Part shown: positions 27,908 through 47,556 of the stretch, piece by piece
How the letters are laid out: each line of letters opens with the position of its first letter
How positions within the stretch are numbered: position 1 is the stretch's first letter
From: Muribaculaceae bacterium
GTDB lineage: Bacteria > Bacillota > Clostridia > Lachnospirales > Lachnospiraceae
Direction: 5' to 3'
Length of the DNA: 64,000 nt
Assembly (NCBI GenBank): GCA_023666425.1
Contig: JAMPCA010000001.1
Coordinates: 822,680-886,679, forward strand
The notes under the pieces: model-generated
The model's input: only the letters and a program-made list of their open reading frames with translations
What the model was told of the DNA's origin: nothing
Databases searched by the model: none
Program-made: the position numbers and the translations under genes

Positions 27908-27979
<72 letters not shown>

Positions 27980-42550: not shown

Positions 42551-43114
42551 ATGAACTCTTTAAAACGATTTACCATCATCGGCATTATTTTCGTAATCAT
42601 TGCCGGAACAATTTCACATTTTGTCTATGAATGGACCGGAAACAACGCCTTTGCCGGTCTGTTTTTCCCCGTGGGCGAATCCACCTGGGAGCATATAAAG
42701 CTTTTGTTTTTTCCGATGCTTGTCTACTCTGTGTATATGACAATAAAACTGCGAACCGGTTTCCCCCATATCCTCCCCGCGCTGTCCGGCGGACTGCTGG
42801 CGGGTTCTTTTGCAATTCCGGTGATTTTTTACAGCTACCGGGGGATTCTTGGAAAGGACTATACGGCGCTGGATATCGCCACCTTTGCGGCCAGTGTGTT
42901 CCTCGCCTTTTTTACCGCATACCGTCTGAGCGGATTCCGCTTTTCGCCTGCAGGCAGAAGGCTTCTGGTAATTGCCGTAATTTTCCTCACGGTATGCTTT
43001 TTTGTCTTCACCTGTCATCCTCCAAAGATGGGGATATTCAAAGAGCCTGCCGCATCATCGAGAACGCACATCAGCTTTTCCTCTTCCTCTGTCCCAATAT
43101 ATTTTGAGGGGTAG
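42551..43114 (+). CDS. hypothetical polytopic membrane protein
   Basis: Start set at the ATG at 42551 (MNSLKRF...). The upstream part of the track ORF overlaps the divergent gene. Four to five TM helices. Its 3' end overlaps the convergent gene by about 100 nt. Confidence 0.55.
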   Translation: MNSLKRFTIIGIIFVIIAGTISHFVYEWTGNNAFAGLFFPVGESTWEHIKLLFFPMLVYSVYMTIKLRTGFPHILPALSGGLLAGSFAIPVIFYSYRGILGKDYTALDIATFAASVFLAFFTAYRLSGFRFSPAGRRLLVIAVIFLTVCFFVFTCHPPKMGIFKEPAASSRTHISFSSSSVPIYFEG

Positions 43115-43734
43115 ACCAGACACAATCCCGCCTTATCCCAATATTCCCCGTCTTCCATCTCAAATCCGTAAAAATACATTCTGTCGCCATGATAATCTCT
43201 CTTTGCCCGGAATAAAAATCTCCCCTCCAGCGGCTCGATGCTGACAGCTCCCTCAAACGTCTTCTTTTCCTTGTACTCTTCTACTGCACAGTACACTTCG
43301 TCGTCTGTCACTACCGCAATACAGGGAACCGTTCCCTCCTGTCCATATTCCCGGTCCGGTGCATAAGCAGATAAAAGCTCCACCTCTGCCGCATGGGATT
43401 TTGCCGGTTTAAACGCTTTATTGACAACATATCCGTAACCCGCATATTCATCCGAAATGGTATGCACTTCTTTTGAAAGCTCTATGGTTTCAAAAGCCAG
43501 CGGATGCGGACTATAGATTTCTTCCTTTTCCAGATTTACGGTTTTCTCTAACTTCTCTTTTACCGCCTCCACCTTTTTATTGCGCCGCATGATACATAAC
43601 GCAGAAATCAGATTTACCACGCCTACCGCCAGCCACATAAATCCCACCAATGTTTTGTTCATAACAAAACACAGGCAGGCGGCACAGATCCATATCACGG
43701 CCGTGACCAGGCTTAGATTGCTTCTCTTCATCAT
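43015..43734 (-). CDS. hypothetical membrane-anchored protein (N-terminal TM pair plus soluble domain)
   Basis: 239 aa. Preceded by an extended -10 promoter TGTGGTATAAT at about 43777-43787 and a GGGGGTGA SD. Confidence 0.55.
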   Translation of the reverse strand: MMKRSNLSLVTAVIWICAACLCFVMNKTLVGFMWLAVGVVNLISALCIMRRNKKVEAVKEKLEKTVNLEKEEIYSPHPLAFETIELSKEVHTISDEYAGYGYVVNKAFKPAKSHAAEVELLSAYAPDREYGQEGTVPCIAVVTDDEVYCAVEEYKEKKTFEGAVSIEPLEGRFLFRAKRDYHGDRMYFYGFEMEDGEYWDKAGLCLVYPSKYIGTEEEEKLMCVLDDAAGSLNIPIFGG

Positions 43735-43831
43735 TCACCCCCACAGATTTCCTCTTCACGCATAAGTAACCCAGAAATTATACCACAATGCAGACGATTA
43801 TGCCACCGGAAAATCCTTTTTGGACATGGAA

Positions 43832-44101
43832 ATCAATTTCTGGAATTGCGAATGGCTGCATGTGCGCAAGGTTCCATGCTGTCGGCTCAATAAATGGATT
43901 TTCTAAACCTTCTGTAAGGGATGTCTCTCCTGACGCGACCGCCCGCAATTCGCCGTCGTGGCTCAGTGCGGGCTTTACGGGACGTCCGTGTCCCGCAATC
44001 GCTGATGCCATACAGAACATTAAGAAAATCCAATTTCCCGTCGCAAAGACAGCTTTGGAAACCTTGCGCACATGCAGCCATTCGCAATTCCGGAAATTGA
44101 T
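43832..44101. repeat. 42-bp near-perfect inverted repeats (43832-43873 and 44060-44101) flanking a 186-bp GC-rich spacer
   Basis: IR-L is ATCAATTTCTGGAATTGCGAATGGCTGCATGTGCGCAAGGTT. IR-R is its reverse complement with 1 mismatch. Lies between the phosphoesterase stop (44117) and the promoter of the 239-aa gene. No obvious target-site duplication. Confidence 0.7.
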
Positions 44102-44116
44102 ATCCTTTTACTCCGT

Positions 44117-44932
44117 CTACAGATTCATCGGCCCTGCGAGCACCTCCCGCGTGACATACAACGGCATAGCCTCCCCCGCGGACATGGCCGCTCCCATGGA
44201 CCATCGCACAAGGGTTGCCTGCATATTCGAAATCTCAATGCAGGTGATGCCGGAGGGATGCACGCAGCTTCCGGTATTCATATATCCCTCCCCCGGCTCC
44301 GGAAGCCGCGGTCTGTGGGAATGCCCCGCTACCAGATAGGCGCCTTTCTCAATCGTCCAGTTTTTCAGACACCGCTCATAGCGTTCTACCTTTTTGTAAT
44401 TGCGGGCGGCGCTGGTCGGATCGTTCACCCCGGTGCTCTCCAGCGGTTTCCAGACATAGCGCACCAAAAACCGGGACAGACGCCAGCACACGGAATTAAA
44501 AAAATCCGCCTGATGGCCGTGAAGCATATAGATATTGGATCCGCCCTCCTCATTTTCAAGAATGACGGCAGGCGGCAGCACTGACCGCAGCGCCATGTCA
44601 TGGTTTCCGTATATCTTTACAAACCTTCCCCTCTGCCTGTAGCATTCCAGAAGCCCGTACACTCTCTCGTGATAACGCATGATCCGTTGCAGACAGCGGT
44701 TCTCCCACAGCTCCTCCCCATCTCCCAGCTCAATATAAAAAAAGTTCTTCCGCAGATAATAGGCAAGCGCCGCCAGATACAGATGGTGATTTTTCAAAAA
44801 ATTGTCGTTGCCCGTACCCTCACCCCGGTGACAGTCGCTAAAAAGCACATAGCGGCTTTTTGCATTCAGCGGGAGCCTTACGGCCCCCGCCAGCGCCTGC
44901 TCTATTCTCGCTTTACAGCTCATAGGCGGCAC
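44117..44932 (-). CDS. metallophosphoesterase (calcineurin-like, PPP/LpxH-like)
   Basis: Motifs DCHRG, GDGEE, GNHD, GH, GHSH in canonical order. Confidence 0.75.
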   Translation of the reverse strand: MPPMSCKARIEQALAGAVRLPLNAKSRYVLFSDCHRGEGTGNDNFLKNHHLYLAALAYYLRKNFFYIELGDGEELWENRCLQRIMRYHERVYGLLECYRQRGRFVKIYGNHDMALRSVLPPAVILENEEGGSNIYMLHGHQADFFNSVCWRLSRFLVRYVWKPLESTGVNDPTSAARNYKKVERYERCLKNWTIEKGAYLVAGHSHRPRLPEPGEGYMNTGSCVHPSGITCIEISNMQATLVRWSMGAAMSAGEAMPLYVTREVLAGPMNL

Positions 44933-45951
44933 TTCCTTTTCTTTCTGTTTGCAAAGCGCTTCCTGTCCGCGCCAAACAGCCGCCGCAGACAGCCCGGAAG
45001 CAGCTCATAGAAAAACAGTAATCTATCCACCGTCTCTGTAAATGGACGACCCGCAAAGCAAAACAGGCCTGCCCAGAAACGGTTCCACATCTGCGCCCAG
45101 CTCCGGTATATTTTTCCCTGCAGGATATCTGCACCGGTTTCCATGCGCACATACACGCGGTTTCCACAGTGCTCGTATGCATTTGCCGCACCCTGTAAGC
45201 CTGTGCAAAAGGCCTCTGCCATCGCTGCATCGTCAAAAGCGATTACGGTATAGAGTACAAGCTGTCCGGGCTTTGAAAACCGCCCCATGGAAAAGCCCGT
45301 CAGCCACCAGTGCCTTGCCTCATAAACGTAGATGGTCTTCCCCTCCCGCATGAGCCTGCTCTTGATGAGAGGCAGCTCATCGTCAGTGGCCGCTTCAAAA
45401 TGGGCGTAGGGATATTCATGGGGCATGAGGATTTGGCTGGCATGGTACACGCCCACCTCCGCCCCCGTAAGGATACCGTACTGGCCTTTCCAGAACTCAA
45501 TGAGCCAGGTGCGTCCCCCATAGTCGAAATAGACCGGCCATATATCCATAACCATATGCACTGCAGGAGCGGCCGCGTCAAATAAAGCCTCATAGCCCGC
45601 CTGCCTCTGCCATGCATCGCGTCTGGTGGAAAAAATGTCCCAGTCCTTTACATAAAAAAATCCGAAGGGTTCCGCCAGAGCATTGATTTTCTCCAGCTTC
45701 TCCCACTCCGGCATCTTCTGTACTTTACACACACATTTTTTCCTGTGTCTGTACACCGCAATAGCCAGCAGAACAAGTACGATGATCCCGGCTGCCGGCA
45801 GCACAGCTTTTACTATTTCCAATGGTTCCACAACAAGCCTCCCGACATATGATCCTTTTTCCGGCGCATTCGCGCCTACTACATGATATGTCGAAAAAGC
45901 AGACTTTGTGAATGTGCATAAAATGCCGGAGCATTGAGGACATATTATCAT
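44920..45951 (-). CDS. DUF4474-like hypothetical protein with N-terminal TM anchor
   Basis: 343 aa. One TM (AVLPAAGIIVLVLLAIAVY). Contains an IEFWKGQYG motif that I associate with DUF4474 from memory. C-terminal basic tail. Confidence 0.5.
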   Translation of the reverse strand: MIICPQCSGILCTFTKSAFSTYHVVGANAPEKGSYVGRLVVEPLEIVKAVLPAAGIIVLVLLAIAVYRHRKKCVCKVQKMPEWEKLEKINALAEPFGFFYVKDWDIFSTRRDAWQRQAGYEALFDAAAPAVHMVMDIWPVYFDYGGRTWLIEFWKGQYGILTGAEVGVYHASQILMPHEYPYAHFEAATDDELPLIKSRLMREGKTIYVYEARHWWLTGFSMGRFSKPGQLVLYTVIAFDDAAMAEAFCTGLQGAANAYEHCGNRVYVRMETGADILQGKIYRSWAQMWNRFWAGLFCFAGRPFTETVDRLLFFYELLPGCLRRLFGADRKRFANRKKRKCRL

Positions 45952-45996
45952 TTCATTTTTAAAGGACAGCCTGATATCAGAATCAGACTGTCCTTT

Positions 45997-46220
45997 GCCT
46001 TTCCTTTTGCCGTGACTTTTCCGCCTGCACTCACGGCTGCGACTTTCTCATTGTCTGAAAAGTACCGCAGTCTGGGCCTGTGGGATTTTTTCGTGCCCGG
46101 TGGCTCGATTAGCTTTTTCAGCTTTTTTATGCTTTTCAGCTTTTCAGGCTCGGGCGGGCTTTATAAGTATAGTGTCTCTGTTATACCATGTCCACCCGCG
46201 GACAAGTCAACTGTTTTTGA
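45997..46220. repeat. direct repeat copy A (about 224 bp, about 98% identical to copy B)
   Basis: Aligns with 47006-47231, differing by 4 substitutions and 1 indel. Contains conserved hairpins (CTGCG-ACTTTTTCA..TGAAAAGT-CGCAG) and three iterated CTTTTCAG motifs. Confidence 0.85.
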
Positions 46221-46371
46221 AAATTCTGTCATTTTCCGATTACTATTCAAAGCTTTTCTCCGCAATGCCATAAAAATTTCTTGCCTTTGTGAGGAATCCG
46301 GTATAGAATGATTTTAGCAGGGTTCGTAAAAAACACTTGAAATCTGTAAGAATCAATGCTATTATATATTT

Positions 46372-46470
46372 AAGAAAGCACCCATTCCAAAGTGGATGCT
46401 CCTAAAAAGTGGTGAATGTCCTTACGGACGCCGCCTCTCTCGTGGATCAGACGAGGGAGGCTTATTTTTT
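46372..46470 (+). ncRNA. candidate cis-antisense small RNA (putative type I antitoxin) convergent with the Hol-Tox-like gene
   Basis: Promoter TTGAAA-17 nt-TATTAT at 46337-46365. Plus-strand intrinsic terminator (11-bp stem GCCTCTCTCGT / ACGAGGGAGGC plus TTATTTTTT) at 46433-46470. The terminator overlaps the last codons of the minus-strand peptide gene and would cover its 3' UTR. Confidence 0.35.
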
Positions 46471-46581
46471 ACGCTTGTTCCTCTTATCGAGAAAGGCAAG
46501 CAACGTAATAACAAAGCTGCCAAAGGCAATCAGCAAGGCTAATATACCAATGAAAATCGAAATGATTTCAAAAGCTGTCAT
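46462..46581 (-). CDS. 39-aa single-TM peptide resembling putative holin-like toxins (Hol-Tox family; type I toxin-like)
   Basis: MTAFEIISIFIGILALLIAFGSFVITLLAFLDKRNKRKK. Strong SD AGGAGGTG 6 nt upstream. Hydrophobic helix then a Lys/Arg tail. A CCTCCT segment in the 5' UTR could pair with the SD. Below the 60-aa floor of the ORF track. Confidence 0.55.
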   Translation of the reverse strand: MTAFEIISIFIGILALLIAFGSFVITLLAFLDKRNKRKK

Positions 46582-47005
46582 AACGCCACCTCCTTCCTAT
46601 GTACTCCGGCAAGCCGGGATAAGCTAGGAGGCTACCACCCTGTCATGGATACTTTCCGTAAATATATTATACTATATTTGTGATAATCTGTATATGAAAA
46701 CATGATTAAGAAGAATTGAAATTTTACTATATTCTACCTCTTCCCTCATAGGTTTTGGGAGTACATATTATTCTTGTATATCCGTAAAAGTAATACTCTC
46801 GTAATCCAGCCCGTTAGCCCATGTCTGTAAAGGAGCAGCAGTAAACTTATATACTTTGAAAACCTTTTCGCTGTTTGTTTATATGAAACAGGAGGATGGG
46901 TCATATTGCCCATCCTCCTGTCATGTTCCGTTTACGCTTATTTTACTGTGATCTTAGTCCTGACACTCGCGCCGTTTAAGGCGGTGACATAAATGTAACC
47001 GGTTC

Positions 47006-47231
47006 CCTTTCCTTTTGCCGTGACTTTTCCGCCTGCACTCACGGCTGCGACTTTTTCATTGTCTGAAAAGTACCGCAGTCTGGGCCCGTGGGATTTTTTC
47101 GTGCCCGGTGGCTCGATTGGCTTTTTCAGCTTTTTTATGCTTTTCAGCTTTTCAGGCTCGGGCGGGCTTTATAAGTACAGTGTCTCTGTTATACCATGTC
47201 CACCCGCGGACAAGTCAACTGTTTTTTGAAA
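47006..47231. repeat. direct repeat copy B
   Basis: See copy A. The pair brackets a 785-bp AT-rich segment carrying the Hol-Tox-like gene. Confidence 0.85.
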
Positions 47232-47262
47232 GAATAAATTTCTTATAACTTTGCCCGGCGTA

Positions 47263-47472
47263 TCACCTTTCCCTCCACTCCTCTGCCAGATCCTCTGCAA
47301 TATAATCTTCATCCATACAATGCAAATCAGACACGCCTTCTCTGATCAGCTGATATTCCACAGAATGGTAAAAGAAATCTAATGCCTGTCTTGTGTTAAT
47401 TCCAACTTTTTGGGCAAAAAGCGGGATAATTCTTGCATATTTCATATGAAGCAAGGTTTTATTTGCCCTCAT
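47263..47472 (-). CDS. DUF3791-like small protein
   Basis: 69 aa. Lies directly downstream of a DUF3990-like fragment, the usual DUF3990-DUF3791 gene pairing in Clostridia. Family assignment is from memory of sequence style. Confidence 0.5.
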   Translation of the reverse strand: MRANKTLLHMKYARIIPLFAQKVGINTRQALDFFYHSVEYQLIREGVSDLHCMDEDYIAEDLAEEWRER

Positions 47473-47556
47473 ATCGCATAACTCCTTTCAAAATGCAGAT
47501 ATTCTTTTATAATCTGATTCGTCCTTAAGCAAATCTGGAAATTAGGTTTCATAACT

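Follow-up and report, generated by a model that had tools for sequence, protein, structure and literature searches.

A probable foldback, MITE-like element with a TwoAYGGAY tip beside a metallophosphoesterase gene of a gut Lachnospiraceae genome

Genes, repeats and fold at the locus

The inverted repeats considered here lie within a stretch of 64,000 nucleotides, referred to throughout as the window, in the gap between two genes of the minus strand. One of these is a metallophosphoesterase gene (44117-44923, minus strand), in which the DxH, GD, GNHD and GHxH motifs are visible and whose homologues carry the PF12850 domain. Its stop codon is found 15 nt from the 42-bp core repeat at 44060-44101 and 8-11 nt before the element delimited below, so that the gene itself remains outside it. 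The other is a 239-aa open reading frame with hydrophobic N-terminal segments, which is preceded on the minus strand by an extended -10 promoter, GTGGCA-18-(TG)TATAAT (43806-43777). This promoter lies about 20 nt outside the element, is kept in the orthologous locus and was the only sigma-70-like site returned by promoter prediction across 43600-44400. A preliminary description of this DNA had named a metallophosphoesterase gene, an extended -10 promoter and a membrane-anchored hypothetical protein as the surroundings of the repeats, and all three assignments were upheld. No promoter or terminator was predicted in or at the element within 43600-44400, and no U-tract was present at it.

Realignment of the 42-bp core repeat (43832-43873 and 44060-44101) confirmed that it is real and contains a single mismatch, and a repeat search of the window extended the full arms to 46 nt (43828-43873 and 44060-44105), 96% complementary and 186 nt apart. 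On the RNA-sense (minus) strand, the segment at 44060-44105, previously labelled IR-R, is the 5' outer arm and that at 43828-43873, previously IR-L, the 3' outer arm. A 37-nt arm pattern searched with up to three mismatches was found at two sites only in the 64 kb, namely the two arms themselves, where the chance expectation from 100 shuffles was 0 matches. Nested in the 186-nt spacer is a second repeat that had been missed in the preliminary description, 31 nt long and 81% complementary, of which 44005-44035 provides the 5' half and 43892-43922 the 3' half of an inner helix (P1, minus strand), the portion of the stem that the Rfam model discussed below contains. The outer and inner repeats correspond, respectively, to helices 2 and 5 of an alignment of related copies (A2, see below).

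In a folding computation, the region 43815-44115 formed a single rod on both strands, with a free energy of -164 kcal/mol (z -14.5) for the minus strand and -158.7 kcal/mol (z -15.9) for the plus strand. The long RNA duplex ascribed to the repeats in the preliminary description was correct, but understated the structure, because the entire element folds as one rod. Both repeats together make up the base of a hairpin of about 280 bases and extend the closing stem of a catalogued motif, TwoAYGGAY. The whole element, a foldback hairpin of about 284 nt, was placed at 43825-44108 (minus strand), its ends being set by similarity to an unlinked paralogue (L016) and to the copy in a sister species (L150), together with the single-rod fold. 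The open reading frames overlapping the spacer had already been dismissed as not credible, and this judgement stands: none of the reading frames crosses the core without interruption in every copy. The ORFs annotated within the element are accordingly considered spurious, and a coding role for it was rejected.

The TwoAYGGAY core and the family of copies

The preliminary description treated the spacer as anonymous sequence and did not recognise the motif that it contains. A scan with Rfam covariance models identified a full-length match to RF01731 (TwoAYGGAY RNA) at 43882-44046 on the minus strand, covering model positions 1-168 with a score of 102.3 bits, more than twice the gathering score of 43, and an E value of 1.5e-18; this is the one RF01731 copy in the 64-kb window. 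Of the two apical hairpins in the covariance-model alignment, hairpin 1 (43975-43998, minus strand) carries the canonical AYGGAY loop, here ACGGAC at 43984-43989, as confirmed by a pattern match. Hairpin 2 (43941-43973, minus strand) reads ACGAC at 43955-43959 and is one G short through a one-base deletion, so the window copy departs from the motif in its second loop. Among the matches listed, 39 of 43 loci have YGGAY as their second loop, and the form ACGAY occurs in four of the 43, all belonging to the clade of the window copy.

Comparative genomics brought the TwoAYGGAY motif to light in 2010, in Clostridiales, in some gamma-proteobacteria and in metagenomes of the human gut; its discoverers rated it "probably RNA, not cis-regulatory" and described its closing P1 stem as "often very large (e.g., 24 base pairs)" (Weinberg et al. 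2010, PMC2864571). Titration of CsrA by the motif was put forward afterwards as a hypothesis unaccompanied by experiment, in a paper that also noted the poor conservation of the outer stem of the Rfam model (PMC4333381). In the literature mentioning the motif from 2010 onward, we found no experimental function, and insertion behaviour is absent from the literature found on it. The window copy agrees with RF01731 in its host, a member of the gut Clostridia, and in its intergenic setting with no fixed gene class, its orthologue being in a Blautia sp. metagenome-assembled genome (MAG) and other copies in Lachnospiraceae. It differs in that its stem runs at least 46 bp further than the model, and the family, although filed as RNA, has members that show the insertion behaviour described in the following section.

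Searching species-representative genomes with a core pattern gave 15 Clostridia/Lachnospiraceae loci, each of them with RF01731 matches, and a second core pattern retrieved at least 120 metagenome stretches, giving more than 130 related copies in genomes and metagenomes. Clustering by flanks resolved the matches listed into 43 distinct loci of gut Lachnospiraceae, or about 41 once one split locus was merged. Nearly every copy was found to possess a long outer repeat of its own, with arms about 180-190 nt apart, and the sequence of this repeat varied from copy to copy. Arms of 27-131 nt extended beyond the ends of the Rfam model in 42 of the 43 loci among the matches listed, and a single-rod fold of 231-380 nt was obtained for 14 of the 17 genome copies. 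Identity of the arms between loci was 0.59, as against a complementarity within the copy of 0.85 (among the matches listed). The same distinction was seen in pairing energy, which was about -111 kcal/mol for a copy's own arms and -34.5 kcal/mol for the arms of different copies, and a copy's own arm was its best partner in 37 of 42 cases among the matches listed.

Covariation was assessed in alignment A2, which comprises seven copies of the window's subfamily. Its consensus has 92 pairs, and compensatory double changes are present in 32. Pairing holds in 96.7% of its cells and drops to 37-43% on sliding the partner. Of the 31 pairs in the helix formed by the outer repeat (in the window, arms 43828-43873 and 44060-44105), 23 are changed on both sides, and the large, covarying P1 closing stem expected of RF01731 was accordingly found in the window's subfamily. 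Metagenome assemblies may be chimeric across the conserved core, and one contig (L118), with non-matching arms, is probably of this kind.

No recurrent neighbour gene was found beside the copies among the family loci, and a recurrent partner gene was rejected as an explanation, neither a common neighbour nor a transposase nor csrA being located next to copies. A phage or plasmid origin was likewise rejected after blastn of the element against phage and plasmid collections gave no match; the two core patterns also had no match in 2.9 million viral contigs.

Insertion of family members and age of the window copy

One of the two interpretations offered in the preliminary description was that of a miniature inverted-repeat element (MITE). 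At the level of the family this reading was borne out by dispersed copies, conserved termini, target-site duplications and a pair of filled and empty sites. It did not extend to recent movement of the window copy, which has no duplication and is fixed at its site. Similarity between copies ends at the foot of the hairpin, as illustrated by the window copy and its unlinked paralogue L016, which are 89.3% identical over 280 nt and have unrelated flanks. The search for further copies that had been suggested was successful, revealing at least two in the window's species and at least six dispersed copies in the sister Blautia MAG (JAMPHB01), in addition to the single copy within the window. A terminal motif, CATGGAAATCAATTTTGG, and its inverse are located at the two ends of copies in about 20 loci, at the hairpin foot. 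In the window, a search for this motif with up to three mismatches returned 43825-43842 only (plus strand, CATGGAAATCAATTTCTG), which represents the intact end of the element, and the opposite terminus (AAAGGATATCAATTTCCG, approximately 44091-44108) is degenerate.

Direct repeats of at least 8 nt flank six of the 43 loci among the matches listed, compared with a null mean of 0.29, and none of 3000 permutations reached six. When flanks were anchored on the termini, at least eight of nine positions matched in two of 12 copies, against a null value of 0.08. The clearest case is locus L082, in which a 333-nt copy scoring 121.5 bits against RF01731 and having 79 uninterrupted outer pairs (-267 kcal/mol) is bounded by CACGGAAATCAATTTTGGAGG...CCTCCAAAATTGATTTCCATG, with TATGTAAAA on each flank. 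The corresponding locus from another sample, L078, contains a single TATGTAAA and no element, its flanks being 98.7% identical to those of L082 over 1.8 kb. Reads spanning the empty L078 site must exist, since a 9-bp repeat is too short for an assembler to skip the element, and the filled state of the L082 site recurs in two more samples. The comparison of L082 with L078 is the signature of an insertion with a 9-bp target-site duplication. Only one such pair of filled and empty sites was found, and a recognisable duplication is kept in a minority of copies. A second empty site was sought among L018-type copies and rejected, as the element is present in the window's species too, while an automated flank-joining search yielded L142 only, which proved to be a tandem-duplication artefact.

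A second, resident copy occupies the same site in both L082 and L078, and from one strain to the other its arms share only 58-70% identity, compared with 90% for the core and 96-99% for the flanks. Each resident version nevertheless folds with about 75-80 uninterrupted pairs. As the resident arms diverge yet pair in each strain, the arms can evidently change fast and in concert. Parts of the resident copy of L082 are similar to the copy newly inserted near it, a likeness suggestive of conversion between copies in that strain; hairpin-templated correction would be an alternative explanation for the resident arms of L082 and L078. Arms that diverge between copies but remain almost perfectly paired are not predicted by a simple decay of MITE copies.

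At the window copy, a target-site duplication was not found, only five of nine positions matching at the termini. An 8-nt flanking repeat, AAAAGGAT, was considered as a candidate and is probably fortuitous, because its left copy falls within the homology of the element. With no duplication, and with AAAAGGAT overlapping the element, the window copy was judged to be old and fixed. The sister Blautia sp. MAG GCA_023663685.1 (L150) has the same gene order, with the element at the same site and in the same orientation (RF01731, 101 bits). Between the two genomes the element is 96% identical over 285 nt, as against 91.7% for the 5.9-kb syntenic region, and a compensated T-A to C-G swap has occurred inside the outer repeat. 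The comparison of orthologous loci proposed earlier therefore established presence and constant orientation in the sister species, and brought to light neither an empty nor an inverted site. A second sample (L029) includes a phosphoesterase gene 99% identical to that of the window, on a contig that breaks off inside the 5' arm and leaves the interior unseen. Relatives with 75-78% phosphoesterase protein identity have no RF01731 match in the 113-133 bp after the stop codon, but cannot be counted as clean empty sites because the downstream gene differs and synteny is broken. The window copy is an old insertion, with its duplication gone, its 5' terminus decayed and the same site occupied in a sister species. 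Its higher conservation than the surroundings, combined with an asymmetric tip and conserved loops, would point to a host- or RNA-level function beyond the MITE label.

Interpretation of the element and its significance

Given the classification of the motif as RNA, one explanation is that the element specifies a structured small RNA whose two GGA apical loops bind and titrate a dimeric RNA-binding protein such as CsrA, in which case the repeats would be a long RNA stem protecting or processing the RNA and mobility would be incidental. TwoAYGGAY shares with the Csr/Rsm sponge sRNAs (CsrB, RsmZ) a GGA in a hairpin loop and membership of Rfam clan CL00106, and both of its loops fit a model of CsrA sites (PMC4333381). 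The core combines asymmetry with conservation and, in alignment A2, retains one U-G pair without exception; G-U pairs in the core lean slightly towards the sense strand (61 versus 42, p 0.08). Hairpin 1 of the window copy, ACACGGACGU, is close to the CsrA consensus, and the conservation of the element above its flanks between the sister species is also in keeping with an RNA function. However, such sponges carry many GGA loops, whereas TwoAYGGAY has one or two: most family members carry two, and the window copy, with a single GGA loop, does not show the several expected of a sponge. Binding of CsrA by TwoAYGGAY is a proposal only in the literature, and no csrA was found either within the window or next to the copies. 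A tblastn search of the window and family loci with an approximate CsrA sequence as query gave no match.

The further difference from the sponge sRNAs, that the element has no predicted promoter or terminator of its own and no orientation bias, also weighs against a small RNA. Conserved expression signals are lacking because homology ends at the hairpin foot. Among the matches listed, 36 contexts, called with a crude ORF heuristic, were distributed as >E> in 12, <E< in 12, <E> in 10 and >E< in two, so that in 10 of the 36 the element lies between divergent genes and neither neighbour transcribes through it. As neighbour orientation is unbiased, a cis-acting 3'-UTR element was rejected as a family property. 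A strand-specific RNA stem was also rejected: G-U and A-C are symmetric in the arms, with only the weak asymmetry of the core noted above. In the outer arms, 94 G-U pairs on the sense strand compare with 84 on the antisense, and transversions number 194 (among the matches listed); in P1 there were 10 G-U against 13 A-C. The long stems accordingly show no excess of G-U over A-C, and transversion mismatches in them are as common as transitions. A requirement at the level of DNA seems most likely, because the arms have no G-U bias and the element no preferred orientation. From these symmetries we infer that it is the hairpin, rather than one transcribed strand, that is maintained, most simply as DNA, and a small RNA to which mobility is incidental is considered an unlikely account of the element.

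The other interpretation offered in the preliminary description, an invertible DNA segment in which a recombinase encoded elsewhere flips the 186-bp interior and so switches the downstream membrane-protein gene, was drawn from geometry. Invertible promoter switches include the cwpV and flgB switches of Clostridioides difficile, associated with RecV, and the invertons of Bacteroides. The window element resembles these in having inverted repeats that flank a segment of about 190 bp, within the few hundred base pairs expected, beside an adjoining promoter. It differs from them in its interior, which is a nested palindrome with no promoter or terminator predicted inside, the downstream promoter being outside the repeats. 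As the palindrome continues through this interior as far as the tip, inversion would alter little except the tip. Furthermore, orientation is identical in the two assemblies that span the locus, those of the window genome and of the sister species L150, which is evidence at the level of assemblies, and in the 18 multiply sampled loci, which contribute 96 copies, no core was seen to be flipped (among the matches listed). A shared recombinase site is a poor fit as well, because the repeat sequence is not common to the TwoAYGGAY copies and differs from one to the next. With no flipped assembly and a palindromic interior, a switch is not supported and appears very improbable. Still less credible is a palindrome that arose by chance, or a terminator-like hairpin of purely local significance without relatives. 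The position directly after a stop codon would suit such a hairpin, but no U-tract is present and no terminator predicted, no matches to the arm pattern are expected by chance, and the element matches the whole model of a curated family, with more than 130 related copies in genomes and metagenomes.

We consider it probable that the window contains an old copy of a foldback, MITE-like family of about 284 bp, with a TwoAYGGAY tip on the minus strand, rather than a recombinase-flipped switch. On this MITE-like reading, the two repeats are the basal helix of the foldback element at 43825-44108, and its apical 165 nt are a full-length TwoAYGGAY motif (RF01731). Family members are composed of short conserved termini, long arms that vary between copies yet remain self-complementary, and a conserved two-hairpin tip, and they insert at new sites with an 8-9-bp target duplication, behaving as non-autonomous transposons. 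The need for a hairpin in DNA could reflect a single-stranded or cruciform form used in mobilisation, or conversion from arm to arm and from copy to copy. At the window locus, read-through from the phosphoesterase gene would produce a duplex rod of about 280 nt, which could serve as a 3' barrier or an RNase III target and so keep this gene apart from the promoter that follows.

Bacterial MITEs and palindromic intergenic repeats include the Correia elements of Neisseria, ERIC, RUP and REPINs. The TwoAYGGAY family is similar to these in being short, non-coding (about 284 bp with no frame open across all copies in the present case), multi-copy and intergenic, with dispersed copies whose homology is confined to the element, terminal inverted repeats with conserved termini, target-site duplication, filled and empty sites, and a hairpin if transcribed. 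It differs in arms that are much longer, up to about 130 nt, and hypervariable between copies, even at one orthologous site in close strains, despite nearly perfect complementarity inside each copy, as well as in its conserved two-hairpin tip and low copy number. The 9-bp target duplication and termini beginning CA(T/C)G offer a tentative lead to transposons of the IS4 family (Tn5, Tn10, IS231), which have both features. IS231-derived MITEs and cassettes are known in Bacillus. No IS4-type transposase with the family termini was found in the window, the family loci or the viral contigs, and more generally the window, about 1.2 Mb of loci and the viral contigs yielded neither a transposase nor an autonomous element sharing these termini. 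Terminal-motif searches of the loci, window and viral contigs for an autonomous element gave isolated or chance matches only, and the candidates were rejected.

A broader proposal can be advanced more tentatively, as a possibility that we rate somewhat below an even chance: that the TwoAYGGAY 'RNAs' are not small RNAs in the first place but a family of foldback-type MITEs of gut Lachnospiraceae, in which a process acting on DNA rapidly diversifies the long arms while keeping their Watson-Crick pairing perfect, and in which the conserved two-hairpin tip is recognised either by a host protein or by the enzyme that mobilises the element. The process acting on the arms could then be hairpin-templated correction in a single-stranded intermediate or conversion between copies. 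If true, this proposal would turn an Rfam family that has been an orphan for 16 years into a mobile element that maintains itself in an unusual way.

For the annotation of genomes, the present locus, together with its many counterparts in gut Firmicutes, should be recorded as TwoAYGGAY or foldback repeat elements and not as invertons, and the small 'hypothetical proteins' called inside such elements are not real genes. Finders of invertible promoters that rely on inverted repeats will encounter these elements as false positives, and short-read assemblies break at them. The evidence for insertion provides a concrete and testable origin for the TwoAYGGAY family, and the fast, concerted change of perfectly paired arms may point to a new mechanism of maintenance or mobilisation.

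Assembly effects and gene calls at the hairpin

TwoAYGGAY hairpins were found to interrupt short-read assemblies. Two short-read contigs of sample SRR18716977, L029 (the window locus in a second sample) and L159, end within an outer arm (1147-1201 and 1049-1102, respectively), and these ends belong to two different TwoAYGGAY copies; the second contig, L159, shows that no fewer than two copies are present in the window's species. In the copy at L118 3905-4300, the left arm does not pair with the right; the two sides were probably joined at the conserved core by chimeric assembly, or else by recombination. Immediately beside another copy, a 68-nt tandem duplication was observed (L142 1893-2030).

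Small 'hypothetical protein' ORFs were called within the hairpin at window 43778-44071 (-), L001 6913-7146 and L150 2718-2897 (the orthologous locus of a sister Blautia species), and those annotated there in deposited assemblies encode 77 and 59 aa. As no frame is open in every copy of the TwoAYGGAY family, such calls are almost certainly spurious.

Other features and labelling of the window

Synteny between the window and the sister Blautia genome stops just upstream of the DUF4474 gene. Given that the region at about 45930-47500 is window-specific, low in GC (0.36-0.45) and contains small ORFs matching DUF3990 and a holin-like toxin, it looks like a variable islet. An Rfam scan placed three tRNA genes in the window, at 1250-1323, 1352-1424 and 27908-27979 (-). 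For P0121 (window 43015-43734) and P0308 (neighbour of the L018 copy), proteins identical or nearly so to the Blautia-like locus are labelled 'Muribaculaceae bacterium' by one source, under NC180_ locus tags; the label of the MAG is probably wrong.

Clustering and neighbourhood of copies

TwoAYGGAY copies tend to cluster. On the 57-kb L010 contig, two oppositely oriented copies (138-302, -; 2004-2168, +) flank a single gene with a cell-wall-hydrolase-like product of 411 aa, and a third copy is also present; clustering was likewise seen in L014, L042 and L082. The DUF4474-metallophosphoesterase gene pair was again encountered near copies in L082 (1809-2518 and 3639-5358) and L100, a distant lineage (phosphoesterase 45% identical) in which the copies lie about 1.2 kb upstream of the pair, whereas that of the window lies just downstream. 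This recurrence may be coincidence or may reflect a favoured neighbourhood. About 330 nt from the copy in L006, a match to Clostridiales-1 RNA (RF01699) was located (1344-1475, +). Another orphan hairpin motif, it came from the same 2010 screen as TwoAYGGAY and could be a repeat element of a similar kind.

Arm divergence at a shared site

Two close strains carry a resident copy at the same site (L082 2168-2518 and L078 at about 2000-2385; alignment A3, columns 451-835). Between them, identity was 58-70% in the arms, 90% in the core and 96-99% in the flanks. Because arm identity is this low, yet about 75-80 uninterrupted pairs are retained in both versions, the comparison indicates that the arms of this copy change rapidly and in concert.
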